64,000 bases of DNA from Lachnospiraceae bacterium (GTDB taxonomy: Bacteria > Bacillota > Clostridia > Lachnospirales > Lachnospiraceae): the NCBI GenBank assembly GCA_050944855.1, contig JBMNRU010000004.1, positions 22,634 to 86,633 on the forward strand, read 5' to 3'. A model generated the notes under the pieces. That model searched no databases. It had not been told where the DNA came from and saw only the letters and a list, made by a program, of their open reading frames with translations. The translations under genes were made by a program, and so were the position numbers. Positions 688-32,899 of this stretch are shown here, piece by piece. Every line of letters begins with the position of its first letter. The first letter of the stretch is position 1.

Positions 688-833
688 ATCTAACTGTCTC
701 CTAATTGGCATCTCCTGTCCTCAGGACAAAAGTTATCGTTCCTGCTTCAAAGCAGTCTTTCAAATATAGCAAAAGTGTCCAGATATTACCCCTGCTAAGG
801 CTTAAAGAAGTAATATCCAGACACTTCTGGTTT

Positions 834-1337
834 TTAAAAGCTCCGGATCTTATCATCTGCATCATCCTGCGTATTTTCAATCTTACGAATGATCACATCA
901 TATCCGACTCCCTCGGCCACCTGTACATGAACCCGGTCTCCCACTTTATGTCCCAGGATTGCTTTCCCGATGGGAGATTCAATGCTGATCATACCCTGCA
1001 GGGAATTTCCACGGATACTGGTAACCAGTTTATAGGTCTCTTCTTCATCCTCTTCTTCAAAATACACGGTGACTGTATTATTCATTCCCACTTCATCCTC
1101 ACGGGAAGTATCTGTCACAATAGAAGCGGTTCTCAGCATACGCTCCAGATAGCGAATACGGCTTTCATTCTTATTCTTATCCCGTTTTGCGGCATAATAC
1201 TCAAAATTCTCGCTGAGGTCTCCCTGCGCTCTGGCTTCTTTTACCGCCTCGATCGCCTTTTTTCGTACCACCAGTTTCCTGTATTCGATCTCTTCTTCTA
1301 TTTTCTTTACATCACTTTCTGTCAACTGTTCCCGCAT
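834..1337 (-). CDS. greA: Transcription elongation factor GreA
   Basis: 167 aa. N-terminal coiled coil (EARAQGDLSENFEYYAAKRDK) plus C-terminal FKBP-like domain (SIESPIGKAILGHKVGD), typical of GreA. Confidence 0.95.
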   Translation of the reverse strand: MREQLTESDVKKIEEEIEYRKLVVRKKAIEAVKEARAQGDLSENFEYYAAKRDKNKNESRIRYLERMLRTASIVTDTSREDEVGMNNTVTVYFEEEDEEETYKLVTSIRGNSLQGMISIESPIGKAILGHKVGDRVHVQVAEGVGYDVIIRKIENTQDDADDKIRSF

Positions 1338-1355
1338 TACCTATCCTCTTTTCTC

Positions 1356-1874
1356 TTAGCCTTCCTGATCGCACAGCAAATGGAGCACCCGGGGCGCCGC
1401 GATCAAAAACCAGGCACAAAACTGTTCCGGATGTGTCTCCAATTCCTTCTGCAGATCCTGTATCGCAATCCAGCGAATCTCCTCAATCTCTTCTGTATCC
1501 GGATGAACCTCTCCCGCATATTCTGTCAGATATACGTGGTCGTACTCATATTCGCTCAGGCCCTCATACTGCTGAAAATATACAAAGGAAAACACTTCTT
1601 TCACATCGCAGCAAATTCCCAGCTCTTCTTTCATACGACGGGGAACCGCTTCCAAAAGTGTCTCACCCTTCCGGGGATGAGAACAGCAGGCATTCGCCCA
1701 CAAGCCTCCCGAATGATACTTGCCTTTCGCTCTTTTTTGAATCAACATTTTATTTCCATTTATGACAAATACCGAAAAAGCACGATGAAGCTGATTTTTT
1801 CGATGGGTTTCTAACTTTTCTCCGCTTCCGATCTCCTGATCCAGAAGGTCTACCCAGATTAAATTCTCGTTCAT
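1356..1874 (-). CDS. idi: Isopentenyl-diphosphate delta-isomerase, type 1 (Nudix)
   Basis: 172 aa. LHRAFSVFV...QKRA..K.HSGGLWANACCSHP and a Nudix-like EELGI segment. Confidence 0.85.
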   Translation of the reverse strand: MNENLIWVDLLDQEIGSGEKLETHRKNQLHRAFSVFVINGNKMLIQKRAKGKYHSGGLWANACCSHPRKGETLLEAVPRRMKEELGICCDVKEVFSFVYFQQYEGLSEYEYDHVYLTEYAGEVHPDTEEIEEIRWIAIQDLQKELETHPEQFCAWFLIAAPRVLHLLCDQEG

Positions 1875-1993: not shown

Positions 1994-3757
1994 TTACAGA
2001 TACTGACTGTGATACAGATTTGCATAAAAACCATTTTTTTGCAGCAGGCTTTCATGATTTCCCTGCTCTATGATCTTGCCGTCTTTCATAACAAGGATCA
2101 CATCTGCTTCCCGAATAGTGGAAAGACGATGGGCTACCAGAAAGCTGGTTCTGCCCTCCATCATCCGGGCAAAGGCCTTCTGAATCCGCATTTCCGTTCG
2201 CGTATCAATGCTGGACGTGGCTTCATCCAGGATCAGCATAGGCGGCAGACAGAGCATAACTCTGGCAATACACAAAAGCTGCTTTTGTCCCTGACTGATA
2301 TTTCCTCCATCCTCGGTAATCTCTGTGTCATATCCCTTTGGCAGACGCATGATAAAGCTGTGGGCATGGGCGGCCTTTGCAGCTTCTATGACCTCTTTTC
2401 TGGTCGCTTCCGGTTTTCCATAGGCAATATTTTCTAAAACAGACCCTTTCTTCAGCCAGGTTTCCTGCAATACCATCCCGTAGCTTCTTCGAAGAGAGGC
2501 TCTGGTGATATCACGAATATCTGTTCCGGATACGGAGATCCTGCCCTGCTGCACATCATAGAAACGCATCAGCAGATTGATCATCGTTGTTTTTCCGCAG
2601 CCGGTAGGACCAACAATGGCAATTCTCTGTCCCGGTTTCACTGACAGATTAAAATTCTCGATCAGCGGACGGTCCGGTACATAAGAAAAAGATACCTGCT
2701 CTAAGTCCACCGTTCCTGTGGTATTTTCAGGTGTCAGCACCCGGGCATCCGGCACATCCTCTGTCTGAGCCCGCTCATCCAACAGCTGAAATACACGGCC
2801 GGCGCAGGCCAGGGCATTCTGCAGTTCCGTCACAACACCGGAAATTTCATTAAATGGTTTTGTATATTGATTGGCATAACTTAAAAAGCAGGATAACTGC
2901 CCTACCGTAATTCCTCCGGCAACTGCATACAAAGCGCCTACCAGGCCAACGCCCGCATATACCACATTATTGACAAAACGGGTACAGGGATTGGTAAGAC
3001 TGCTGAAAAAGATAGCTTTCAAACTGACTTTTTGAAGCCGTCCATTCATGTCATCAAATGTTTCCAATGCCTTTTTTTCATATCCAAACGCCTGCACCAC
3101 ACGCAGGCCTTCCATCATTTCATTAATAAAACTCGTCTGTTCCCCCCGCACTTCACTCTGGGTTTTAAAGTTATGAAATGTCTTTTTCGCAATAAATCCG
3201 GCCACCACAAAACTAAGAGGCGTGACGCACACAACTACCAATGTGATGCTTACATTTACATAAATCATAAATCCCAGTGTACCGATAATGGTCAGAACTC
3301 CTGTGAAAAACTGGGTGAACCCCATAAGCAAACCGTCCGCAAACTGATCCACATCGGTGATCACGCGGCTTACCAGATCCCCGGAGGGATGTCTGTCCAG
3401 GTAAGAAAGCGGCAGTACCTGAATCCGGGAAATGGCTTCATTTCTCAAATCCCTGGATACACTATACGTGATCTTATTGTTGCAAAGACTCATGATCCAC
3501 TGCGCAAAAAAAGTCAGGGCCACAGATGCCAATATGATTTTGCAAATGGCAAAAAGACCGGCAAAATCCACGTTTCCCTCTCCGATCATATAGTCAATGG
3601 CATTCCCTGTGAGAATCGGCACGTACAGCTGGGTCGCCACGGAAAGCGCCGCACACAGCAAGCTGCAGATCACAAATATTTTATAGGGAGCAATATAACG
3701 AAGCACCCTTGTCAAAGTTGCCTTTTTCTGTTCTCTTTTTTCCTTATCCGCCATCAC
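1994..3757 (-). CDS. ABC exporter, fused permease/ATPase (half of a heterodimeric pair)
   Basis: 587 aa. Six-TM N-terminal domain, Walker A GPTGCGKTT, signature ISQGQKQ, Walker B LILDEATS. Start overlaps the upstream partner by 4 nt. Confidence 0.9.
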   Translation of the reverse strand: MMADKEKREQKKATLTRVLRYIAPYKIFVICSLLCAALSVATQLYVPILTGNAIDYMIGEGNVDFAGLFAICKIILASVALTFFAQWIMSLCNNKITYSVSRDLRNEAISRIQVLPLSYLDRHPSGDLVSRVITDVDQFADGLLMGFTQFFTGVLTIIGTLGFMIYVNVSITLVVVCVTPLSFVVAGFIAKKTFHNFKTQSEVRGEQTSFINEMMEGLRVVQAFGYEKKALETFDDMNGRLQKVSLKAIFFSSLTNPCTRFVNNVVYAGVGLVGALYAVAGGITVGQLSCFLSYANQYTKPFNEISGVVTELQNALACAGRVFQLLDERAQTEDVPDARVLTPENTTGTVDLEQVSFSYVPDRPLIENFNLSVKPGQRIAIVGPTGCGKTTMINLLMRFYDVQQGRISVSGTDIRDITRASLRRSYGMVLQETWLKKGSVLENIAYGKPEATRKEVIEAAKAAHAHSFIMRLPKGYDTEITEDGGNISQGQKQLLCIARVMLCLPPMLILDEATSSIDTRTEMRIQKAFARMMEGRTSFLVAHRLSTIREADVILVMKDGKIIEQGNHESLLQKNGFYANLYHSQYL

Positions 3758-5484
3758 GCTTCACCTGCCTTTTTAAACTGACTCTCGTATATTTCCCGAT
3801 ATACCAGACAGCCCTCCAGCAATTCTTCATGCGTGCCGATACCGCATAATTCTCCATCATCCAACACTAAAATCCGATCCGCATGCTGCAGGCTGGAAGC
3901 TCTCTGACTGACGATAAAAACCGTCATTTCTCCCTCCAGGGCAGCAATGGCTTTTCTGAGTGCCGCGTCTGTAGCAAAATCCAGCGCACTTGCACTGTCA
4001 TCCAAAATAAGAATATCTGGTTTTGCCACCAATGCTCTGGCAATGGTCAGACGCTGCCGCTGCCCGCCGGAAAGATTTCTTCCTTCCTGTTCCACCGGGT
4101 CATCCAGACCCAGTTTTTTGCCCCGGACAAATTCCTCTGCCTGTGCCATCCGAAGGGCCTCCCAGAGCTTTTCTTCCTGTGCATCAGGATTTCCCCAGAG
4201 AAGATTGGAACGGATGGTTCCGGAAAATAACTGTGCTTTCTGCTGTACCACACCGATCCGCTCTCTCAGCTGCTCTTTCGGATACTTTTTAATATCCACG
4301 CCAAAGATACGCACTCTGCCCCGGGTCGCATCATAAAACCGGGGAATCAAACTGATCAATGTAGATTTCCCGCTTCCGGTACCGCCGATCACACCGATCG
4401 TCTCCCCCTTTCGGGCACAGAAATTAATATCGGATATACTCTCCGCGCCGGCACCTTTATAAGCAAATCCCACTTGTTCAAAAGCGACTGCCTCTTCTGT
4501 TTCTTCTTTTATGTCAACTCTTTCGACGCCAAATTCCATCTCCGGATCCATGTCCATCACAGACTGCACCCGATTGGCACAGGCAATCGCCTTTGTCACC
4601 AGAATAATCAGATTGGCTAATTTTACTAATTCCACCAGTATCTGGCTCATATAGTTCACCAGCGCCACCACATCACCCTGCTGCAGAGCACCGATATTTA
4701 CCTGTATAGCTCCCTGGTATAAAATGGCAATAATAGCCAGATTCACGATCACATAAGTAACCGGATTCATAACAGAAGAAATCTTTCCCACTGCCAGCTG
4801 CAGTCGGGTAAGCTCCTCATTTGCCTGACAAAACTGCTCTTTCTCCGCTTCCTCTCTGTGGAATGCCCTGACTACACGCACACCGGTAAGATTTTCGCGG
4901 GTTATCCCCAGTACCCGATCCAGACCGCCCTGTACCTTTTTATACATGGGCATGGTCCAGAGCATAATGCCGAACACTACAACAGCCAAAAGAGGAATGG
5001 CCACTACAAAGATCCAAGCCGCCTTCCGGCTGATAAAAAATGCCATGATCATACTGCCGAACACCACAAAAGGAGAACGCAAAAACAGACGCAGAAACAT
5101 ATTAATGCCATTCTGCACCTGATTTATATCGCTGGTCATACGGGTGATCAAAGTGGACGTGCCTACGGTATCCATTTCCGCAAATCCCAGCAGCTGAATA
5201 TGAGAAAAAAGAGCATGACGCAGCTCTGTGGAAAATCCTACTGCCGCCTTCGCCGCAAAATACTGCGCGGTAATACTGCACAGCAGACCGATAATCCCCA
5301 GAGCGATCAGTACGCCGCAAAGCTTCAGAATATAGACGCTGTCTCCTGATGCAATTCCTTTATCAATAATAGCAGCCATGACAAGCGGCACCAAAAGATC
5401 AAAAAACGCTTCCAGCATTTTAAAGAGCGGTGCGATCACACATTCTTTTTTATAGCCACGCATAAATTTTCCGAACTTTTTCAC
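3754..5484 (-). CDS. ABC exporter, fused permease/ATPase (partner subunit)
   Basis: 576 aa. Walker A GGTGSGKST, signature LSGGQRQR, Walker B LILDDSAS. Confidence 0.9.
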   Translation of the reverse strand: MKKFGKFMRGYKKECVIAPLFKMLEAFFDLLVPLVMAAIIDKGIASGDSVYILKLCGVLIALGIIGLLCSITAQYFAAKAAVGFSTELRHALFSHIQLLGFAEMDTVGTSTLITRMTSDINQVQNGINMFLRLFLRSPFVVFGSMIMAFFISRKAAWIFVVAIPLLAVVVFGIMLWTMPMYKKVQGGLDRVLGITRENLTGVRVVRAFHREEAEKEQFCQANEELTRLQLAVGKISSVMNPVTYVIVNLAIIAILYQGAIQVNIGALQQGDVVALVNYMSQILVELVKLANLIILVTKAIACANRVQSVMDMDPEMEFGVERVDIKEETEEAVAFEQVGFAYKGAGAESISDINFCARKGETIGVIGGTGSGKSTLISLIPRFYDATRGRVRIFGVDIKKYPKEQLRERIGVVQQKAQLFSGTIRSNLLWGNPDAQEEKLWEALRMAQAEEFVRGKKLGLDDPVEQEGRNLSGGQRQRLTIARALVAKPDILILDDSASALDFATDAALRKAIAALEGEMTVFIVSQRASSLQHADRILVLDDGELCGIGTHEELLEGCLVYREIYESQFKKAGEA

Positions 5485-5592
5485 CTGTTTTCCTCCTCTG
5501 ATACTCCTATATTTCTACGCTTCTTATCTTCTGCTGCTTTTTCCTTTTTATACCGGAAAAGCAGCGCTGCAAAGTTCTTTTCCACTGTCATT

Positions 5593-8283
5593 TCAGACAT
5601 CTTCCAGCTTCTTTCTTCCCAGACGTATCTCTTCCATCTGTTCCGCAAGCTCATCCGACATATGATGAAACAGATAATTCCTGCTGTTTTGCTTTTTATC
5701 ATGCCATTCTTCCCGGATCTGACGGCGCACAGCTTCTACCTCTTCCTTAAATTCCCTGGCAGATAACAGATTCGCCCCCTGGCCCAAGATGATCACCTGC
5801 TCCAGGCCATCGGAAGTGGCCACCGTTACCCGGTATTTTTTATCCATAGCATGTACTGTTTTTTCAATATACTGATCCGCCGTCTCCGCTTCTTTGGTAA
5901 ATACGACATAAATATTATGATATTTCAATACCTCTCCCGGATAGCCTTCCAGCTTATACGCATCAAATACCACGATCACCGTACATTTTTTGTACCCCTG
6001 ATAGTTGCATAAAATATCCTGCAGCTTACTTCTTGCCGCATCCATATTCACTTCTGCCAGTTCTTTTAACTCATCCCAGGCAAAAATAATATTATAACCA
6101 TCCACCAGAAGATATTCTTCTGCTTTTTTTTCTTTTTTAGGCGCTTTATAACGCTGCACAGGAGGAGAAGATACAGAGGAAGACCGCAGCGCCTCTCCTA
6201 TCCTTGGCTTTACCGGGCCATAGGTTCGCTCAAAAATGGCCTTCAGTTCCTCGTCATTTTGTCTGTCCCGGTCATAAGAGGCTGTGTTTATCGGCACAGA
6301 CCGGGGCGCAGTCTCTTCTTCCCGCGGCTCTTCCCATCCGCTTTGTATATGCATATACTGCTCTACTTCATCCCAGTTCACCACAAATCCGGCACCGTGA
6401 GAGCAGAAAACAGAACCGGTAGGATGTTCCAAATCCCGTTCCGGATCATATCCTATCCTTTCTATCACTTCCTCCGCATTATGACAGACCTCATATCCTT
6501 TTAACATACAGAATAATCGGCCCCGGCCTCTGGTATAAGAAATCACTTCTGCCTGATAGTCCTGCATCCCGGCCACCGGCGCAAAACCTTCCAGCACCAT
6601 GCTGTCCATCTCCAGATACGGAGGCTCAAAACTTCCGGACATCCGCTGCACATCAGACATGGCTCTTCCCACCATCTCGGCGGGTACCTCCAGACGAAAC
6701 TCATAATAAGGTTCCAGAAGAATGCTCTCTGCTTTTTTCAATCCCTGGCGAACCGCCCGATATGTGGCCTGACGGAAATCGCCCCCTTCGGTATGTTTCA
6801 GATGAGCCCGCCCGGTCAGCAGGGTAATCTTCATATCTGTGACGGGGGAACCGGTGAGTACGCCTTTATGTTCCCTTTCTGCCAGATGCGTCAGAATCAG
6901 CCGCTGCCAGTTACGGTCCAGAATATCCTCATCACAGTCCGATGCAAAAACAAGACCGCTTCCCCTTTCCAGCGGTTCCAGAAGCAAATGTACCTCTGCA
7001 TAATGCCGAAGGGGCTCATAATGTCCCACACCTTCCACCGGGGCAGCTATGGTCTCTTTATATACAATATTTCCGGCTCCAAATTCTACAGAAACACCAA
7101 AACGTTCTGCAATTAAGCTTTTTAATATTTCAATCTGGACTTCTCCCATCACCTGGGCATGTATTTCCTGCAGCTGTTCTTCCCAGATAATATGCAGCTG
7201 AGGCTCTTCTTCCTCCAGCTGGCGCAGCTGCAAAAGCATAGTATGCACATCACAGTCCTGGGGCAGCAGAATCTGGTATGTCAGCACCGGTTCCAAAACA
7301 GGCTCTTTTGCTTCTTCTTCCATCCCCAGACCCGCTCCCGGCTGTGTCTGGCTTAAGCCCGTCACGGCACAGATCGTGCCTGCCAAAGCTTCTTTTACCA
7401 TTTCATACTTAGAACCGGAATAGATACGGATCTGATCGGCTTTTTCCCGGTCTTCTGTCAATACATCCTTTACCTTCAGGCATCCTCCCGTAATTTTCAT
7501 ATACGTCAGACGATTCCCCTGATCGTCCCGGGCAATCTTATACACCCGGGCACCAAATGTATCCGGATAAACCGGCATCCGGGTATAATCCCTAAGACCC
7601 TGCAAAAGTTCTTCTATCCCCTGCAGTTTCAGGGCAGATCCGAAATAACAGGGGAATACTTTCCGCTGCGCGATCAGACGGACAATATCCTTCCGATTCA
7701 GTTCTCCCGTTTCCAAATACTGCTCCAGCAGCGCTTCCTCGCACATTGCCAGACTTTCATAAAAGGCTTCCGGATCCCGGCCGGCGTCAAATTCTATACA
7801 GCCATCATCCAGACGTCTCTTCAATTCCTCCAGCAGCGCTTCTCTGTCACAGCCCGGCTGATCCATTTTATTAATAAACAAAAAAACTGGAACCTGATAA
7901 CGCTCCAGCAGTCTCCATAATGTCTGTGTATGTCCCTGCACACCATCTGCACCGCTGATCACCAACACCGCATAGTCCAACACCTGCAGTGTCCGCTCCA
8001 TCTCTGCCGAAAAATCTACATGTCCCGGTGTATCCAGCAGGGTTATCTCGGCATCCTCCAGATAAACCATGGCCTGTTTGGAAAATATGGTGATCCCCCG
8101 GGCACGTTCCAGCTCAAAGGTATCCAGAAAAGCATCTTTATCGTCCACTCTTCCCATTTTCCGGATACTTCCGCCCAGATATAAAATGCTCTCAGAAAGA
8201 GTTGTCTTTCCCGCATCCACATGAGCCAGCAAGCCTACACAAATACGTTTCCTGATTTTCTTTTTTTCCTCCTGTTTGCCCAT
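5593..8283 (-). CDS. Translational GTPase (Tet(M)/EF-G-like) fused to a C-terminal YacP/Rae1-type NYN ribonuclease domain
   Basis: 896 aa. G1 AHVDAGKT, G3 DTPGH, G4 NKMD, then EF-G-like domains to about aa 640. A Ser/Pro/Lys linker follows. Residues 722-896 (nt 5596-6120) read LLVDGYN..VVFDAYK..FTKEAETADQYIE..VATSDGLEQ, matching B. subtilis YacP/Rae1 end to end. Confidence 0.85.
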   Translation of the reverse strand: MGKQEEKKKIRKRICVGLLAHVDAGKTTLSESILYLGGSIRKMGRVDDKDAFLDTFELERARGITIFSKQAMVYLEDAEITLLDTPGHVDFSAEMERTLQVLDYAVLVISGADGVQGHTQTLWRLLERYQVPVFLFINKMDQPGCDREALLEELKRRLDDGCIEFDAGRDPEAFYESLAMCEEALLEQYLETGELNRKDIVRLIAQRKVFPCYFGSALKLQGIEELLQGLRDYTRMPVYPDTFGARVYKIARDDQGNRLTYMKITGGCLKVKDVLTEDREKADQIRIYSGSKYEMVKEALAGTICAVTGLSQTQPGAGLGMEEEAKEPVLEPVLTYQILLPQDCDVHTMLLQLRQLEEEEPQLHIIWEEQLQEIHAQVMGEVQIEILKSLIAERFGVSVEFGAGNIVYKETIAAPVEGVGHYEPLRHYAEVHLLLEPLERGSGLVFASDCDEDILDRNWQRLILTHLAEREHKGVLTGSPVTDMKITLLTGRAHLKHTEGGDFRQATYRAVRQGLKKAESILLEPYYEFRLEVPAEMVGRAMSDVQRMSGSFEPPYLEMDSMVLEGFAPVAGMQDYQAEVISYTRGRGRLFCMLKGYEVCHNAEEVIERIGYDPERDLEHPTGSVFCSHGAGFVVNWDEVEQYMHIQSGWEEPREEETAPRSVPINTASYDRDRQNDEELKAIFERTYGPVKPRIGEALRSSSVSSPPVQRYKAPKKEKKAEEYLLVDGYNIIFAWDELKELAEVNMDAARSKLQDILCNYQGYKKCTVIVVFDAYKLEGYPGEVLKYHNIYVVFTKEAETADQYIEKTVHAMDKKYRVTVATSDGLEQVIILGQGANLLSAREFKEEVEAVRRQIREEWHDKKQNSRNYLFHHMSDELAEQMEEIRLGRKKLEDV

Positions 8284-8388
8284 GAAAATGCCTCCTCCCG
8301 TGAAAAAATACTCTTAGTAGTATATCACAAGAGGAGGCAATCGTCGAGTTTTTCTCATCCCTGTCCATATGAAAATACCGCAGGCATT

Positions 8389-10149
8389 TTACTCTAACTC
8401 TGCAATTTGTTTCTGCAGATATCTGCCCACCACATTAGCAAAGTCTGTAATATCACGAATATAAGCAAAATCTTTTCCGAATATTTTTTTCTCGGCCTGC
8501 AGATCTTCCTCTTCTCCTGCGAACACACCCAGCACAGCAATTTTTCTGTTTCTCAGTTTCCGGATCTCTCCCGCCGTATCCTTTACCGCATAGTCCAGAC
8601 AGTAGGGTTCTTTGTGCTTCTCGTCCCTGTCCTCATAGCGAATATCCTGAATACCGGCAATAATATCACTGGGTCTTCCGTCGCTGAGCACAATGAGAAT
8701 CTTATTCTCCTCGTCCCGTTTTTCCAGACTGTCAGCCACAGCCCGAACAGCAAGACCATCCCGGTTATTGGCGGAACCGTAAAACTCAAAAATCCGGGAA
8801 TTTATCTCTCTTCCATCTTCATAATCCCGGAATTTATTTAAAATAGTATAAGCGCCGAAGGTACAAAAGCCTACAACCCGATGAGGGATTCTCACAATAC
8901 TTAAAGCTTCGCTGATAATATAACCCTGGAGTGCCACCAGACTTTGCCTTCCCTGCTGGGATCCGCTGGCGTCAATCAGTACTTCTACGACAAAATCCGT
9001 ATTGTCCCGAATCAACTCCCGTTCAAACAAACGGCGGTTTTTGGTTCGTCCCACATTCCACAGTTTGGGAACACAGATCATTCCATAATCGCTGCTGCAG
9101 ATTTCTTTTTCCGTTCTGGTAAGCAGTGCCCTCTTCAGGGTTCCTGCCAATACCTGTATATTCTGTCTTGTTACTAACTGTTTTTTTCTGAATTCCTTCA
9201 GATTTTCTTCCTTTACCTTCCGGACAAAAATAGCTTTTGCCGTATGCCCCATCTGACAGTGCAGGATTCCCTCCGTCATATGGATACGGCATTCTTCATG
9301 AATTCCTCTGCATATCTGGGAATTGAAATACTTCTTTTCCTGCTCTGTAAGACAGCTCTTTCCATAATTCCGCTCCACATATTCTTCCATGCGTGCCGTT
9401 GATTCCTGATCCAGGTAAATCATCCGTGCTTTGGATTTCTCCTGCTGTCCATTGTCCTGCGCATCCACATGACCACTGAAAATATTAACCGGCCGGTCGT
9501 CATCCGACTGGGGGACTTCCTCTTCCGTCGTCTCCGTCTCAGCATATTCTTTCCTATCTTTATCGGAATTCTTCACATGGCGGTCCAGCCCTTTGAAATC
9601 CTTTGCAAAGCCTGCTGCATAAGCCTGTTTATAAACCCATTCCAGGCAGGTGCAGATATCCTGGAGAAACTGGGTATCGCACAGACTGCAGATCCGCTCC
9701 AGAAGCGGCTGTATCCTGTCATTTGCCTTTTCCCCATACAAAACATATTCCAAATAACATTTCTCAATATAATCCCAGTCTGTATGGGTAAGCCGCACAA
9801 TATCTTTCTCAAGCGTATCCTGATAAGCTCTTTTGCGGATAGCCGCCACACCTTTTCGTTCCTTTTCAGCCTTCTTCCACACCGCGCTGTCAATACAGAT
9901 CTTCCCCAGGGCCGTAAGAACTGTGCTGTTCATCCCCGCATATACTTTTTTTGCAATAAAATGATCATAGGCTCTGGCATCAAAATACTTTTCAAAAGCC
10001 CCCTGCCGGATGGCATCATAAAAAGCAATATACCTGGACTTCCGATACACATCCTCATCCACCCGGATATCCAGATCGTAATCCTCGCTGACGGTCCAAA
10101 GCACATTCTGGATCCGGCTGCGGATATCCATAATATTTTCTTCTCTCAT
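8389..10149 (-). CDS. VWA-domain protein (NorD/CbbO/CobT-like partner of the AAA+ ATPase)
   Basis: C-terminal VWA domain with MIDAS VLIDASGSQ and ILIVLSDGRPSD. The N-terminal ~400 aa have no domain I recognise. The start was moved to ATG 10149, which overlaps the upstream stop as TAATG. Confidence 0.8.
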   Translation of the reverse strand: MREENIMDIRSRIQNVLWTVSEDYDLDIRVDEDVYRKSRYIAFYDAIRQGAFEKYFDARAYDHFIAKKVYAGMNSTVLTALGKICIDSAVWKKAEKERKGVAAIRKRAYQDTLEKDIVRLTHTDWDYIEKCYLEYVLYGEKANDRIQPLLERICSLCDTQFLQDICTCLEWVYKQAYAAGFAKDFKGLDRHVKNSDKDRKEYAETETTEEEVPQSDDDRPVNIFSGHVDAQDNGQQEKSKARMIYLDQESTARMEEYVERNYGKSCLTEQEKKYFNSQICRGIHEECRIHMTEGILHCQMGHTAKAIFVRKVKEENLKEFRKKQLVTRQNIQVLAGTLKRALLTRTEKEICSSDYGMICVPKLWNVGRTKNRRLFERELIRDNTDFVVEVLIDASGSQQGRQSLVALQGYIISEALSIVRIPHRVVGFCTFGAYTILNKFRDYEDGREINSRIFEFYGSANNRDGLAVRAVADSLEKRDEENKILIVLSDGRPSDIIAGIQDIRYEDRDEKHKEPYCLDYAVKDTAGEIRKLRNRKIAVLGVFAGEEEDLQAEKKIFGKDFAYIRDITDFANVVGRYLQKQIAELE

Positions 10150-11036
10150 TAAAACACATCCCCACAATTCCATGTATCAGGGATACGCGTCATCACAATA
10201 TCTCCGATCAGTTCCCTTTCAAAATTGTCAAAACACTTATCCGTAACGCCCATATGAACGGCATCCAGAGGCGTAAGTCCTCCGCGGATCAAACGAAGGG
10301 CTCCGATCAAGCCTCTCATGTCCACCGCTTTTGTAGATATTTCGCCATTTTGTGATTTTAACTGTAAATCCAGGAATAAACCGGCAAATTGCTCCAACGC
10401 CTCATCCCGGATATCCGGAAATACATTGAGAAGAATCTGCTGCAGCCGGTCCATCGATAACGGCGGCATATTAATTACCATAAAACGGGACACCAGCGCA
10501 TCGTTCAATTCCTTCGTTCCCGCATATCCATAGTTCATCGTTGCGATAAAACGGCAGGCCGGATGCAGCTGAATCCGCTCATACCCGGGAACATCAATGA
10601 TCCTTCTAAAATCCAGGGCAGCATGAAGCACAGAAACCGCATCACTTTTTGCCATATTGATCTCATCCAGTACACCAAATCCGCCATAAACCGCACACTG
10701 ATAAATAGGACCCTTTCTCAGCTGTACTTCATTATTTACAAAGGTATCTGTTCCAATAAGGCTGCTGCTGTCTGTATTGACATGAAAGGAAATATCATAG
10801 ATAGGTCTTTGGAAAATCCATGCCAGATTCTCAGCCAGCACATTTTTTCCTGTAGCCTTGTCCCCGCACAGCAAAAGATTTTCTCCCTCCAAAAGTGCAG
10901 TCACTGCCTTCTCCAGAATCTCTGTTCCGTAAAACGGCATAGACGGCTCTGTCACCCGGGAAAGAACCCGGTCGTCCAGAGAATAAAATTGTTTAAATTC
11001 CTCAATTCGATGGTTTAGTTTTTCATTTATTTCCAT
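10149..11036 (-). CDS. MoxR/CbbQ-NorQ-type AAA+ ATPase
   Basis: 295 aa. Walker A LLLCGDKATGKN (atypical Asn after Lys), Walker B GVLDEINMA, and a CbbQ/NorQ-like motif order. Confidence 0.8.
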   Translation of the reverse strand: MEINEKLNHRIEEFKQFYSLDDRVLSRVTEPSMPFYGTEILEKAVTALLEGENLLLCGDKATGKNVLAENLAWIFQRPIYDISFHVNTDSSSLIGTDTFVNNEVQLRKGPIYQCAVYGGFGVLDEINMAKSDAVSVLHAALDFRRIIDVPGYERIQLHPACRFIATMNYGYAGTKELNDALVSRFMVINMPPLSMDRLQQILLNVFPDIRDEALEQFAGLFLDLQLKSQNGEISTKAVDMRGLIGALRLIRGGLTPLDAVHMGVTDKCFDNFERELIGDIVMTRIPDTWNCGDVF

Positions 11037-11082
11037 ATGATCACCGCTTCCTGTTTTCTTTCTATTTTGTCCTTTTTTTCAT

Positions 11083-11751
11083 TTATGATCCGGAAAGATC
11101 CCGCTTTGCCCGTTCCAGTCTTTCATAAAACTGCGGATAAAAAGATTCTTCCGACCGATACGGCCTCTGAAAAAAGAGCCGCATCACATACAGATTTACC
11201 AGTTTCATTCGTTCCGGATCCGAATCCTCCTGAAAGTCTTCCTGCAGATTTTTCAAAAAATAATGCCAGTCCAGAATAAACTGTTCATTCTCCTTCAAAT
11301 CCGGCGTATCAATCCACTTTTTTACTTTGATCTTAGAGCGATTTTCCTTCCTGCACTCATGAATTTGCAGGAAATACTTAAATCCATGATCTTCATAAAA
11401 TCGACCCAACGGAAACAGACGGCACATGCCCGGACGCAGCGGATGAATACGGCAGCGCCCCTGCTCATTTAAAAATGCACAGACTTCTTTTTCTCCGATC
11501 ATCTTCAGATTCGGCAGGATCATGCCATCCACTACGTTTAATTCCAGCTCTTTTTCCAACAATTCTTCAAATGTCCGATTAAGGCCGGCAGTCAGCCGAT
11601 AGATATCCAGCGGATCCAGTACAACGGAATTTCCCATACCCTGACAACAATGGGAGCATCCGGCGCAGTCCTGACAATCCGCCTTTACCAGATCATTGGC
11701 CGTATATAATTTCCCGTCAGAAATCTCATTCATATCCACATTTCGCAGCAT
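11083..11751 (-). CDS. YkgJ-family cysteine-cluster protein
   Basis: 222 aa. N-terminal CQDCAGCSHCC (CxxCxxCxxCC) plus later Cys residues, typical of the YkgJ/UPF0153 family. Confidence 0.75.
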   Translation of the reverse strand: MLRNVDMNEISDGKLYTANDLVKADCQDCAGCSHCCQGMGNSVVLDPLDIYRLTAGLNRTFEELLEKELELNVVDGMILPNLKMIGEKEVCAFLNEQGRCRIHPLRPGMCRLFPLGRFYEDHGFKYFLQIHECRKENRSKIKVKKWIDTPDLKENEQFILDWHYFLKNLQEDFQEDSDPERMKLVNLYVMRLFFQRPYRSEESFYPQFYERLERAKRDLSGS

Positions 11752-31289: not shown

Positions 31290-31462
31290 AAGTTCGTAGG
31301 AAAAAGCAGACGCTTACCGAAGGAGTAAAACTCTCAGGTGTCCTGATCTTGTCGGGATAAAGACTATGAATGGATGTGACTCTGGAGAAATTCGATTGAC
31401 TCGAATGCCGAAGGTGCAAACACGGATTACTGTGTGAATCTCTCAGGCAAAAGGACAGAGGA
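31290..31462 (+). promoter_or_regulatory. Tandem glycine riboswitch (two aptamers)
   Basis: Aptamer 2 is textbook: CTCTGGAGAA...GCCGAAGGTGCAA...CTCAGGCAAAAGGACAGAG. Aptamer 1 is a variant: GTAGGAAA...ACCGAAGGAGTAA..CTCAGG-[hairpin]-TAAAGAC, with P1 TCGTAG/CTATGA. It lies upstream of an alanine/glycine symporter. Confidence 0.85.
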
Positions 31463-31477
31463 TAGAAGAAATTTTCC

Positions 31478-31555: not shown

Positions 31556-32899
31556 ATGGAACTGATAACAAAAATTGTAGCTGCAGTCAACGGTCTTCTG
31601 TGGGACAAAAACTTACTGCTGTTTTTACTTTGCGGAACCGGTATCTTTTATACCATTCGCCTGCGCTTTATCCAGGTACGTAAGTTCGGCGAAGGCGTAC
31701 GCCGTCTGTTCAGTGGTTTCAGCATGAACGGCAAAGCAGCAGATGAATCCGGTATGAGTCCTTTCCAGGCACTGACCACTGCCATTGCCGCACAGGTAGG
31801 TACCGGTAATATTGCCGGCGCGGCAACCGCTATTGCCTGCGGTGGACCCGGTGCGATCTTCTGGATGTGGGTTTCTGCTTTCCTGGGCATGGCCAATATT
31901 TATGCGGAAGCTATCCTGGCTCAGGAATATAAAACTACCATTAATGGACGCGTAGCAGGCGGTCCTGTTTACTACATTCGTACTGCATTTAAAGGAACTT
32001 TTGGAAAATTCCTGGCAGGATTTTTCTCTGTCGCCATTATCCTGGCCCTGGGCTTCATGGGAAATATGGTACAGTCCAACTCGATCGGTGCAGCCTTCAA
32101 TAATGCATTTGGCCTGAACCGTATTCTGGTAGGCGTAATTGTTGCTATTATTGCTGCCTTCATTTTCCTTGGCGGTGTAAAACGAATTGCATCTGTAACA
32201 GAAAAGGTCGTTCCTGTCATGGCTGTTTTATATGTGATTGGCTGTCTGATCTTCTTAATTTTAAATGCATCTGCCGTTCCGGGCGCTTTCAGAGACATTT
32301 TCGTAGCTGCTTTCTCTCCGCAGTCTATCGGCGGCGGTCTGATCGGTATTACCGTACAGAAAGCTATGCGTTATGGTGTTGCCAGAGGTTTGTTCTCTAA
32401 CGAAGCCGGTATGGGTTCCACACCTCACGCACATGCCATGGCAAAAGTTAAAAAACCTCAGGATCAGGCTGTTCTGGCCATGATCGGTGTCTTCATCGAC
32501 ACTTTCATTGTTCTGACAATGACTGCTCTGGTTATCATATCCTCCGGCGTAGCTGCTACCGGAGCAAATGAATCCACACTGGCACAGGACGCATTTAATC
32601 AGACTTTTGGTTCCTTTGGCAATATCTTCATCGCCATCTGTCTGTTATTCTTTGCTTTCTCCACCATCATCGGATGGTACTTCTTCGGCGAGACAAACGT
32701 AAAATATCTGTTCGGCGAAAAAGCAGTGAAGATTTATGCGGCCATTGTCATCGTATTCATTGTATTGGGATCTGCATTAAAAGTACAGCTGGTATGGGAT
32801 CTGTCCGATATGTTTAACGGTCTGATGGTAATACCAAACTTACTGGCTCTGCTGGTATTAAACGGAACCGTTGCCAGAATTGCCAAAGAAGACGATTAA
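31556..32899 (+). CDS. Alanine/glycine:cation symporter (AGCS family)
   Basis: 447 aa. SPFQALTTAIAAQVGTGNIAGAATAI and FSNEAGMGSTPHAHA are typical AGCS motifs. Confidence 0.92.
   Translation: MELITKIVAAVNGLLWDKNLLLFLLCGTGIFYTIRLRFIQVRKFGEGVRRLFSGFSMNGKAADESGMSPFQALTTAIAAQVGTGNIAGAATAIACGGPGAIFWMWVSAFLGMANIYAEAILAQEYKTTINGRVAGGPVYYIRTAFKGTFGKFLAGFFSVAIILALGFMGNMVQSNSIGAAFNNAFGLNRILVGVIVAIIAAFIFLGGVKRIASVTEKVVPVMAVLYVIGCLIFLILNASAVPGAFRDIFVAAFSPQSIGGGLIGITVQKAMRYGVARGLFSNEAGMGSTPHAHAMAKVKKPQDQAVLAMIGVFIDTFIVLTMTALVIISSGVAATGANESTLAQDAFNQTFGSFGNIFIAICLLFFAFSTIIGWYFFGETNVKYLFGEKAVKIYAAIVIVFIVLGSALKVQLVWDLSDMFNGLMVIPNLLALLVLNGTVARIAKEDD

Follow-up and report, generated by a model that had tools for sequence, protein, structure and literature searches.

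The locus raises the question of what a single polypeptide does when it carries an EF-G/Tet-like GTPase, a tether and a Rae1-type nuclease. Our best reading is a ribosome-docking GTPase delivering a Rae1-type nuclease. The GTPase-NYN architecture itself is not new, having been described by Atkinson 2015 (PMC4342817) and Matelska et al. 2017 (PMC5499597). Our literature search found no experimental work on any member of the fusion family, in line with the initial annotation, which knew of no experimental characterisation. The window referred to below is the whole stretch of DNA analysed, 64,000 nucleotides in length.

Integrity of the fused gene and its nuclease domain

The ORF listing shows a single open reading frame of 896 aa on the minus strand of the window, with an ATG start and no internal stop codon. 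A protein identical to its product is already present in NCBI/JGI, under the NCBI title ‘NYN domain-containing protein [Lachnospiraceae bacterium]’. The features of the gene and its upstream region are:

5593..8283, minus strand: complete GTPase-NYN fusion gene, stop codon at 5593-5595 (from the ORF list)
8291..8299, minus strand: Shine-Dalgarno sequence GGGAGGAGG, 7 nt 5′ of the ATG (read from the sequence)
8319..8347, minus strand: promoter-like site, TCGACG, a 17-nt spacer and TATACT, with TG preceding the -10 hexamer (extended -10; a consensus match only)

The promoter-like site is weak evidence, since shuffled sequence gives about as many such matches.

A fusion of this kind could be an artefact, an adjacent Tet-like GTPase gene and yacP having been joined by a sequencing or assembly error in a metagenome-derived contig; the sole point in its favour is the probable MAG origin of the window. 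The comparative data refute such a merger and leave it a negligible chance. Both halves were present in all 120 close homologues, and the fused frame ran uninterrupted through 75 of 80 related genomic loci, which come from different species and assemblies, isolates among them; most of the other five end at a contig edge. Among 150 distant representatives, 121 passed strict motif matching for both halves and nearly all were 830-1150 aa long. The tether also contains a conserved helix that is in frame. The gene therefore encodes one polypeptide, as the initial annotation held, with no stop or frameshift splitting it near 6120-6360.

The C-terminal part of the protein consists of the tether and the nuclease domain:

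6121..6333, minus strand: tether, residues 651-721 (pLDDT below 50 in two stretches)
6211..6267, minus strand: conserved amphipathic tether helix, residues 673-691, DEELKAIFERTYGPVK (family motif EL..IF.RTYG)
5596..6120, minus strand: YacP/Rae1-type NYN endoribonuclease domain, residues 722-896 (Pfam NYN_YacP; 5mq8/5mq9 match)

A profile search placed Pfam NYN_YacP (PF05991) at residues 725-887 (2.1e-55; 187.7 bits, gathering cut-off 24.6), the match spanning positions 1-165 of the 166-position profile, and the sequence of the B. subtilis YacP/Rae1 crystal structures (5mq8/5mq9) was matched over Rae1 residues 3-167 (E=1.5e-27). The C-terminus is thus a full-length domain of the proposed YacP/Rae1 type, and the assignment of residues 722-896 to nt 5596-6120 was arithmetically correct. 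The NYN motifs (described for YacP in PMC5499597) were located as LLVDGYN at 725, VVFDAY at 771, ETADQ at 800 and ATSD at 822, with GYN at 729-731; two basic-rich helices follow the active-site region. The acidic residues foreseen for an NYN site are present: D728, D774, D803 and D825 align with Rae1 D7, D53, D81 and D104, and the published catalytic mutant of Rae1 is D7N D81N (PMC10351889). These four aspartates, together with Y730 and N731, were invariant in 80 relatives, and 16 key positions were identical in 133 of the 150 representatives. Identity to B. subtilis Rae1 reached 46% over a 114-residue local alignment; the Rae1 homologues of S. aureus (44%) and C. difficile (41%) are about equally close to it, each over the stretch that aligned. 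A search of the C-terminal 295 residues against NCBIfam matched no model, and NCBIfam appears to hold no HMM for Rae1. No second NYN gene was found within the 64-kb window.

The tether is composed of two variable, predicted-disordered stretches (658-675 and 693-714, conservation 0.15 and 0.19) around the conserved helix, which was modelled at 673-688 with a pLDDT of about 77, had a conservation of 0.46 against 0.15-0.19 in its flanks and was also found in Monoglobus. The initial annotation of an ~80-aa Ser/Pro/Lys-rich linker hence applies to the two disordered stretches; residues 603-650 are instead a structured extension of domain V, and the helix at 673-688 interrupts the disorder. In the 41 of 80 relatives in which both flanking motifs could be cleanly located, the span from the hairpin motif of that extension to DGYN was 77-121 aa. 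Such a constrained length, with a sequence free to vary, fits a leash.

The GTPase module compared with Tet proteins

Residues 1-650 were divided as follows:

7579..8250, minus strand: G domain, residues 12-235 (Pfam GTP_EFTU at 14-234, 8.5e-51; alignment with Tet(M)/Tet(O)/TetB(P)/EF-G)
7324..7554, minus strand: domain II, residues 244-320 (EF-G_D2 at 245-313; model pLDDT above 90)
7078..7293, minus strand: domain III, residues 331-402 (EFG_III at 331-402)
6727..7071, minus strand: domain IV, residues 405-519 (EFG_IV at 405-519, 4.9e-19; loops compared with Tet and EF-G)
6478..6726, minus strand: domain V, residues 520-602 (EFG_C at 522-602, 2.1e-16)
6334..6477, minus strand: structured, family-specific C-terminal extension of the module, residues 603-650 (pLDDT 94-96)

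All five Pfam domains exceeded their own cut-offs. The G domain carries G1 AHVDAGKT (20-27), the switch-I motif RGITI, G3 DTPGH (84-88, its last residue being the catalytic His88), G4 NKMD (138-141) and G5 GSALK (215), while the EF-G-type G′ insertion is essentially missing. The complete translational-GTPase layout first read from the sequence was thereby recovered, with the G domain and domains II-V. The predicted structure (pLDDT 90.6) has a five-domain EF-G fold, and Foldseek matched it to EF-G, EF-G2 and aEF2, ribosome-bound EF-G structures included, at E ~1e-53 over ~690 columns. The G1, G3 (including His88) and G4 residues were invariant in 80 relatives at 42-62% identity. Judged by G1-G5, the His after DxxG and domains II-V, the fusion is a translational GTPase of the EF2/EF-G family in the broad sense. 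At the level of the alignments, its GTPase and nuclease centres are both intact and under purifying selection.

Domain IV is the A-site probe of EF-G and Tet proteins. It was the best-conserved segment of the fusion (mean column conservation 0.66), with family-specific tip loops GVGH[FY]EPLRHYAEVH (418-432) and GRAHxKHTEGGDFRQ (491-505). The idea that this His/Lys/Arg-rich tip forms a second catalytic site was set aside for want of any supporting evidence. The extension behind domain V was modelled as a helix (603-610), a beta-hairpin (624-635, SVFCSHGAGFVV) and a short helix (640-643); S624, F626, G630 and V635 were near-invariant in 80 relatives, and relatives that lack the NYN domain (P0255, L096-L100) retain it.

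A Tet-type function would make the protein a ribosomal protection or tolerance factor that dislodges tetracycline or another A-site drug, its accessory nuclease clearing the mRNA of drug-stalled ribosomes. The best NCBIfam model was indeed tet_protect (NF012153), in one end-to-end alignment, TetO was the top PDB sequence match, and the HMM-based classification of Atkinson 2015 had assigned these proteins to a broadly defined ‘Tet’ subfamily. However, the scores were far below the cut-offs (tet_protect 420.1 against 775; TetM/W/O/S 294.6 against 1100; Otr(A) 313 against 900; Tet(Q) 263 against 1425), and identity to Tet(M), Tet(O), Tet(S) and TetB(P) was about 30%, against 29% to true EF-G. The EF-G HMMs TIGR00484 and NF009381 gave 304.6 versus 659.4 and 330.8 versus 583, with the alignment split around the missing G′. 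Tet domain-IV tip loops contact and dislodge tetracycline (PMC4342817). The domain-IV loop reads GLYYSPVSTPADFR in Tet(M)/Tet(O) and GEFFSPASTPADFR in TetB(P), but GRAHLKHTEGGDFRQ in the fusion: the YSPVS position is replaced by AHLKHTEGG, a different loop with an EF-G-type tip His, conserved in 80 relatives. In a neighbour-joining tree of GTPase modules rooted on EF-G (moderate evidence, with few references and no bootstrap values), the fused family and its NYN-less relatives were monophyletic and formed a clade separate from Tet(M)/Tet(O)/TetB(P). We consider ribosomal protection quite improbable. By sequence the fusion is not a Tet resistance protein, in agreement with the initial warning against annotating it as a tetracycline resistance determinant.

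Distribution and gene neighbourhood

A survey of how widespread the fusion is gave at least 150 clusters at 50% identity and at least 80 Clostridia species with the same architecture. Across Clostridia this is a large, chromosomally encoded family, with what looks like the distribution of a core gene passed on vertically. No gene neighbourhood or island was conserved across 80 related loci, and unbiased clustering of the neighbours gave generic families only, each in at most 11 of the 80. Such a widespread chromosomal distribution with variable context is like that of a housekeeping factor.

In the window, the fusion gene is immediately followed downstream by a heterodimeric pair of multidrug-type ABC exporter genes, with a MatE exporter gene nearby. 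Given that the bmrBCD leader is a target of Rae1 in B. subtilis, a conserved operon with the ABC pair and a bridging small ORF was an attractive idea. It was rejected as a general feature, since none of the 80 related loci contains the ABC pair, the vWA gene or the AAA gene. For ribosomal protection, the exporter genes count in favour, MatE genes recurring at 10 of the 80 loci, as does the observation that NYN-less relatives adjoin mobile-element genes, as Tet genes do. Against it stand the missing recurrence of the ABC pair and the chromosomal distribution of the family across Clostridia, in which a conserved mobile context is absent.

The NYN-less relatives indicate that the GTPase module has some function without the nuclease, and the nuclease-free form arose at least twice. 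An estimate that nuclease loss is rare (1 in 150) was withdrawn: total-score ranking favours fused proteins, and five NYN-less relatives appeared in a scan of viral contigs.

The same scan bears on a possible anti-phage role, proposed in the initial annotation, in which the fusion would shut off translation in response to phage or stress, as a nuclease of abortive-infection type that is freed to act on ribosomes under GTP control. Ribosome-targeting nucleases recur in defence systems, and a few relatives adjoin prophage genes. Yet PADLOC, run on the protein and its neighbours, returned only a marginal ThsB match (E=8e-4, 17 bits) and no domain past threshold, and was otherwise negative beyond generic similarity of the window’s ABC genes to the ATPase parts of mads models. 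Among 2.9 million viral contigs of IMG/VR we found six family-type matches, five of them without the nuclease and one ending at a contig edge before the nuclease region. Two ‘Bacteriophage sp.’ records in INPHARED carry the fusion; both have UNVERIFIED status, and cellular genes are present in the one examined. With no conserved neighbourhood or defence island at the 80 loci and a distribution resembling that of a vertically inherited core gene, the phage or defence link was rejected, and we regard an effector of this type as very improbable.

The canonical arrangement cysS-mrnC-rlmB-yacP-sigH was seen in C. difficile. None of the genes of this cluster occurred in the annotated immediate flanks of the fusion (about 13 kb), and none was recurrent in the 80 loci. 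A search seeded with C. difficile YacP gave matches from Peptostreptococcaceae only. A Monoglobus record with the fusion, from a collection without the strain’s main chromosome, contains sigH with no adjacent yacP.

Proposed function and known systems

Rae1 is a translation-dependent mRNA endonuclease that acts at stalled or collided ribosomes and whose cleavage promotes tmRNA rescue (PMC10351889, PMC12407103, PMC13622287); the tie to collided ribosomes and tmRNA rescue is that of Tetreault et al. 2026 (PMC13622287). The initial annotation relied on Rae1 cleaving mRNA in the A site, a model revised in 2025-26 and no longer accepted (Deves et al.; Tetreault et al. 2026, PMC13622287). Delivery of an A-site nuclease to the A site is therefore too simple a description.

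We instead propose a single chain in which an EF-G/Tet-like GTPase (1-650), a flexible tether of ~70 residues and a putatively active Rae1-type nuclease (722-896) would act together, the nuclease cutting mRNA on stalled ribosomes to which the GTPase delivers it. We give this even chances of being right; ribosome binding, substrate, cut site and GTP control are all inferred. The GTPase module in its GTP form would dock at the ribosomal factor-binding site, where the conserved domain IV would probe the decoding centre and so recognise stalled ribosomes, with an empty A site or blocked translocation. Docking would raise the local concentration of the tethered NYN domain and lead to a cut in the ribosome-associated mRNA near that ribosome. 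GTP hydrolysis on the sarcin-ricin loop would then release the factor, serving as a timer that confines cleavage to persistently stalled ribosomes, and the shortened mRNA would be passed on to rescue by tmRNA and to decay, the route shown for B. subtilis Rae1. Counting against the scheme, its geometry demands either a tether that extends past the 30S subunit or a GTPase bound to the trailing ribosome. The existence of NYN-less relatives and the original rRNA/tRNA-processing prediction for YacP domains (PMC5499597) also speak against it.

The same docking could place the nuclease on the ribosome itself, cutting 16S/23S rRNA near the decoding or GTPase centre or processing rRNA precursors, with ribosome inactivation, turnover or maturation as the outcome. 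In EF-G and Tet structures the domain IV region is next to h44 and H69, to which domain IV and the C-terminal extension of the fusion would be adjacent, and a tether of this length could reach many rRNA sites. The first prediction for YacP, based on its operon with mini-III and RlmB, was a role in rRNA/tRNA processing (PMC5499597; C. difficile locus). Against this, the only characterised YacP-family enzyme, Rae1, cuts mRNA, with no rRNA role reported in the Rae1 literature covered, and in none of the 80 related loci was the fused gene found in an rRNA-processing operon context. Furthermore, a constitutive chromosomal ribosome-killer would need an inhibitor, and a conserved partner gene is absent. 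An rRNA target thus seems unlikely.

Delivery to mRNA on stalled ribosomes can be extended to a bolder scheme that we advance tentatively, as possible though short of an even bet. In much of Clostridia, the fusion may be a sensor and effector for stalled or collided ribosomes, whose EF-G-derived domain IV would read the A-site or translocation state and whose GTP timer would license mRNA cleavage by the tethered Rae1 domain. It would then do in bacteria, with a single protein, what no-go decay (Hbs1/Dom34 with Cue2) does in eukaryotes, and in the lineages concerned it might replace stand-alone Rae1.

Rae1 has newly become central to Gram-positive rescue of collided ribosomes (2025-26), and its contact with the ribosome is too short-lived for a structural study of how the ribosome is recognised (PMC13622287). 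The GTPase of the fusion could in principle be locked on the ribosome by a non-hydrolysable GTP analogue or a His88 mutant and, being tied to a Rae1 domain, would offer a practical handle on this recognition. If the sensor-effector scheme is true, such a trappable GTPase would reveal how Rae1-type nucleases engage the ribosome. The fusion could also throw light on mRNA cleavage at stalled ribosomes in bacteria. Its carriers include dominant human-gut Clostridia (such as Blautia, Roseburia, Agathobacter, Faecalibacterium and Flavonifractor), in which, to our knowledge, translation quality control has hardly been studied. As a separate observation, some RefSeq/NCBI records label relatives of the fusion as TetM/TetW/TetO/TetS family, a mislabelling that can inflate resistome counts in gut metagenomes.

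Among known systems, Rae1 of Bacillus subtilis is matched along its whole length by the last 175 residues of the fusion, the 46% identity applying to the 114-residue core, and the GYN motif, the four active-site aspartates (D7 and D81 equivalents included) and the C-terminal helices are common to both. The NYN domain of the fusion probably shares, on this resemblance, the chemistry and substrate class of Rae1, ribosome-associated mRNA. Rae1 itself is a free protein of 170 aa that binds the ribosome transiently and alone and is encoded in the cysS-mrnC-rlmB-yacP-sigH cluster, whereas the NYN domain of the fusion is covalently tethered to a translational GTPase of 650 residues whose gene has no conserved neighbours.

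Tet(M), Tet(O) and TetB(P) have in common with the fusion the five-domain EF-G-like layout and the reduced G′ region, and the fusion presumably docks at the same ribosomal site. It differs from them in being chromosomal and taxonomically coherent in Clostridia, where Tet genes lie on mobile elements, and in carrying a nuclease. With EF-G (EF-G2/archaeal EF2) it shares the G motifs, the catalytic His, domains II-V and the domain-IV tip His equivalent to H573 of T. thermophilus EF-G. In contrast to EF-G, it has no G′ subdomain and a large deletion between G4 and G5, its domain-IV loop 1 is shorter by four residues and has no GGRGQ(Y/F) motif (HY--E--PLRHYAEV against KFVRQSGGRGQYGHV), its gene lies outside the str operon, and the protein adds the C-terminal hairpin extension, the tether and the nuclease.

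By analogy, SmrB of E. coli, Cue2/NONU-1 of eukaryotes, Hbs1-Dom34/Pelota and Ski7-exosome would share with the fusion the concept of a ribosome-state sensor combined with mRNA cleavage or decay, and in Hbs1 and Ski7 it is likewise a paralogue of the translational GTPases that provides ribosome targeting. The fusion has no sequence relationship to SMR nucleases, and while in the SmrB, Cue2, Hbs1 and Ski7 systems sensor and nuclease are separate or built from other domains, here they are joined in one chain.

One reading frame for a GTPase and an NYN nuclease

The fusion gene is a single 896-codon ORF at 5593–8283 (minus strand) without internal stops. The initial annotation had proposed one fused frame; no stop or frameshift splitting it was seen, and every motif quoted there was found at its position. 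A strong Shine-Dalgarno sequence (GGGAGGAGG) precedes the ATG by 7 nt, and upstream is a promoter-like site whose -10 element is of the extended type. Searches with GTPase/EF-G and YacP-type NYN profiles, which had been suggested as a check, assigned six Pfam domains to the protein, each above its curated threshold.

Pfam domains and modelled extension of the fusion protein (residue numbers)
14–234: GTP_EFTU (E=8.5e-51)
245–313: EF-G_D2
331–402: EFG_III
405–519: EFG_IV
522–602: EFG_C
Extension of domain V: helix 603–610, hairpin 624–635 (SVFCSHGAGFVV), helix 640–643 (AlphaFold2 model)
725–887: NYN_YacP (E=2.1e-55, nearly the entire profile covered)

The C-terminal 175 residues also matched residues 3–167 of the B. 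subtilis YacP/Rae1 crystal-structure sequence (5MQ8/5MQ9; E=1.5e-27), in agreement with the proposed YacP/Rae1 identity of this end. An AlphaFold2 model built from an alignment of 80 diverse relatives was confident (mean pLDDT 90.6, pTM 0.76), and its N-terminal 650 residues matched structures of EF-G, EF-G2 and archaeal EF2, both ribosome-bound and free (Foldseek E~1e-53). The GTPase-NYN fusion observed initially is confirmed. It had been presented without prior reports, but this gene adds one member to an architecture that is already on record: Atkinson 2015 (PMC4342817) reported the fusion and named a test of its RNase ability as a goal, and Matelska et al. 2017 (PMC5499597) reported it and termed its role unclear. 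As the initial annotation supposed, a full-text literature search found no experimental work on the fusion.

We then considered the catalytic residues. Alignment to the Rae1 sequence paired D7, D53, D81 and D104 with D728, D774, D803 and D825 of the fusion; the published Rae1 catalytic mutant is D7N D81N (PMC10351889). Among 80 family members just 42–62% identical to the window's protein, invariant positions comprised A20, V22, D23, G25 and K26 of G1, D84, T85, P86, G87 and the catalytic H88 of G3, K139 and D141 of G4, and D728, Y730, N731, D774, T796, D803 and D825 of the NYN domain, so that the acidic residues said to be present are indeed there. At 16 key catalytic positions, 133 of 150 aligned representatives from a HMMER scan were the same as the window's protein, the exceptions being for the most part fragmentary sequences or carriers of a conservative T/SKxD form of G4. 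Such invariance or near-invariance shows that selection maintains both predicted activities, GTPase and NYN nuclease.

Distribution and genomic setting of the family

An identical protein is present in NCBI, from a Lachnospiraceae MAG. The HMMER scan covered 1.84 billion representatives; its best 150 hits reached down to 43% identity (704 bits), nearly all were 830–1150 aa with an end-to-end match, and 121 showed strict motif matches for both halves. The closest 120 clusters (67–70% identity) were fused in 120/120 cases. A GTDB scan with one genome per species returned at least 599 relatives, of which the best 80 were all full-length fusions, the true fused:unfused ratio being beyond what such score-ranked lists can give. 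These 80 belong to Lachnospiraceae, Oscillospiraceae (Faecalibacterium, Flavonifractor, Intestinimonas), Peptostreptococcaceae, Anaerovorax, Fusibacter, Herbinix, Epulonipiscium and others, and Monoglobus also carries the fusion. An assembly artefact is excluded by these comparative data from clusters and GTDB.

The Monoglobus pectinilyticus locus (NZ_OY725736.1, 358500–370500) lies on a 518-kb record named plasmid that has secA, sigH, pta-ackA and hisD, and so looks like a chromosome fragment or chromid; there pta-ackA precedes sigH, in place of the usual rlmB-yacP. Two records from human faeces entitled 'UNVERIFIED: Bacteriophage sp.' (MT835563.1 and MT835514.1) carry full-length fusion genes. 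The former additionally encodes an NAD(P)H-hydrate dehydratase, a citrate transporter and a peptidoglycan-binding repeat protein, and looks like bacterial chromosomal DNA within a virome data set.

Some relatives lack the nuclease. They stop about 10 residues past the conserved hairpin extension.

Members without an NYN domain (coordinates within the locus that carries each)
L088, 2679–4607: protein P0255
L096, 1–2181
L097, 4473–6848
L098, 1–2265
L100, 395–2350

P0255 (642 aa), found in two independent samples, ends a few residues past the hairpin extension with no NYN remnant downstream. Three of the genes have prophage or mobile-element neighbours: L096 and L097 a GH25 endolysin gene, to which L097 adds an integrase gene, and L100 genes for an HNH nuclease and DNA methylases. 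Since NYN-less members occupy two separate positions within the fused clade (neighbour-joining tree, without support values), the tree suggests that the nuclease was lost secondarily at least twice. Their existence implies that residues 1–650 form an autonomous module, which has some role even without the nuclease.

No conserved neighbour of the fusion gene was found among 80 related loci: the commonest families were generic (response regulators, MatE, ABC ATPases), at variable positions and in at most 11/80. Nor was the gene ever seen, in these loci, in the canonical yacP slot cysS-miniIII-rlmB-yacP-sigH, which was observed in C. difficile.

Genes flanking the fusion gene (window coordinates)
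705–1814, plus strand: 369-aa ORF without Pfam match
1994–5484, minus strand: overlapping ABC exporter gene pair (576 + 587 aa), heterodimeric type IV
5481–5600, minus strand: 39-codon small ORF (MSEMTVEKNFAALLFRYKKEKAAEDKKRRNIGVSEEENR) filling the 108-nt gap from the fusion gene to the ABC exporter gene
8389–10173, minus strand: 594-aa CobT_C/VWA-domain protein (upstream trio, 8389–11751)
10149–11036, minus strand: AAA_5 (MoxR/dynein-like) ATPase (upstream trio)
11083–11751, minus strand: CxxCxxCC zinc/iron-chelating-domain protein (upstream trio)

The exporter pair and the AAA/VWA genes occurred in 0/80 related loci, and a homologue of the CxxCxxCC protein in 2/80. Top PDB matches of the pair were TM287/288-like and other multidrug/lipid exporters. 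Directly downstream, it may be co-transcribed with the fusion gene in this genome only; no terminator was found between them. At its ATG the small ORF overlaps the 3' end of the fusion gene, and at its TGA the exporter's GTG start codon (AGGTGA). Folding of this region is somewhat more favourable than for shuffled sequence (z = -2.6). The arrangement, seen in 0/80 related loci, resembles the leader-peptide control of B. subtilis bmrCD, a Rae1 target. Homologues of the 369-aa ORF (38–45% identity) lie in 6/80 loci (e.g. L007, L015, L032), on the opposite strand a few kb downstream of the fusion gene; its placement may be a weak remnant of ancestral synteny, the ABC pair having been inserted later. 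The sole Rfam family in the window is a glycine riboswitch aptamer (31372–31468, plus strand; RF00504; 66.6 bits, gathering score 32), upstream of a 447-aa ORF (31556–32899, plus strand).

A role in phage defence, raised initially, is left without support and is hardly credible: PADLOC found no defence system and did not match the upstream trio, the 80 loci share no neighbourhood, and just six family-type hits were obtained among 2.9 million viral contigs, five of which lack the nuclease with a clean ending like that of P0255, the sixth being interrupted by the contig end.

The tether and a likely mode of action

The region between the two enzymes had been described as an 80-aa Ser/Pro/Lys-rich linker. 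This holds for residues 658–675 and 693–714, to which predicted disorder is confined in the model and around which column conservation falls to 0.15–0.19. It does not hold for residues 603–650, a conserved extension of domain V modelled with confidence, in which S624, F626, G630 and V635 of the hairpin are near-invariant (80 relatives), or for the conserved helix 673–688 between the disordered stretches, with the family motif EL..IF.RTYG. The spacing from hairpin motif to DGYN was 77–121 residues in the 41/80 relatives where both motifs could be cleanly located. Judged from the alignment, the tether appears to be a leash, constrained in length and free in sequence. Counting 22 + 30 disordered residues at ~3.5 Å apiece and a helix of 19 residues, we estimate that it could span ~200 Å when fully stretched, its realistic reach being far shorter.

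The initial annotation had taken A-site cleavage by Rae1 as established, and this is out of date, understanding of Rae1 having moved beyond the A-site model. Rae1 generates tmRNA substrates on collided ribosomes, and no ribosome-bound Rae1 structure exists because its binding is transient (Tetreault et al. 2026, PMC13622287). Most likely, the GTPase module in its GTP form would dock at the factor-binding site, where domain IV would sense which state the decoding centre is in. The leash would keep the NYN domain near the mRNA of the docked ribosome or the segment between collided ribosomes, the NYN domain would cut this mRNA, and the factor would be released upon GTP hydrolysis. The mRNA entry side would be the easier cut site for the tethered nuclease.

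In disomes, the trailing ribosome's mRNA entry lies against the exit of the ribosome ahead of it. An appealing idea is therefore that the EF-G-like module would recognise a trailing ribosome whose translocation is blocked. That the nuclease is instead directed at rRNA seems unlikely. The fusion is a timely system, so far little exploited, which could bring the recognition of ribosomes by Rae1 within reach of experiment. Overall, the initial interpretation stood as to architecture, intact sites and the rejection of a Tet function, but not as to Rae1 mechanism, prior reports and the anti-phage role.

Relation to Tet proteins, EF-G and EF2

At 29% identity, genuine EF-G was about as close to the fusion as Tet(M), Tet(O), Tet(S) and TetB(P) were (~30%). 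The top curated model for the fusion was NCBIfam tet_protect, where its 420 bits fell short of the cut-off of 775, and it also stayed below the cut-offs of the NCBIfam EF-G models (331 vs 583 and 305 vs 659). Tetracycline is contacted and dislodged by domain-IV tip loops (Atkinson 2015, PMC4342817); the fusion has another loop in place of the Tet loop YSPVS. A neighbour-joining tree built on the GTPase module (EF-G root, without support values) showed the family as monophyletic and distinct from the Tet clade. Low identity, sub-cut-off scores, the replaced loop and the separate clade argue that the GTPase is a distinct EF-G/EF2-family lineage and not a tetracycline resistance determinant, as the first reading held; Tet-like drug protection is accordingly very improbable.

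This distinction matters in practice, since RefSeq/NCBI tag several relatives 'TetM/TetW/TetO/TetS family tetracycline resistance ribosomal protection protein' (e.g. Agathobacter rectalis WP_306784676.1). The window's protein, the one member for which this score was taken, reached 294.6 against that model's cut-off of 1100. Fused members so labelled include those at 3619–6420 of an Agathobacter rectalis locus (NZ_CP143948.1) and proteins P0053 and P0095; such labels are likely to yield false positives when resistomes are surveyed.

Of all parts of the fusion protein, domain IV shows the highest conservation (0.66; G domain 0.58, NYN core 0.60). Its tip bears two family-specific loops, GVGH[FY]EPLRHYAEVH (residues 418–432; G420 and H421 invariant) and GRAHxKHTEGGDFRQ (residues 491–505; H494, K496, H497 and D502 each in at least 72/80 relatives). 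A near-invariant His/Lys/Arg cluster at this tip (nt 6769–7032, minus strand; H421, R426, H427, H432, H494, K496, H497) is conserved above the surroundings of the G motifs. Compared with EF-G, loop 1 of the fusion is four residues shorter and the G' subdomain is essentially absent. The loop that stands in for YSPVS retains the EF-G-type tip histidine, H494 aligning with H573 of T. thermophilus EF-G. The AHxKHTEGG loop is loosely reminiscent of the diphthamide loop region of archaeal and eukaryotic EF2.
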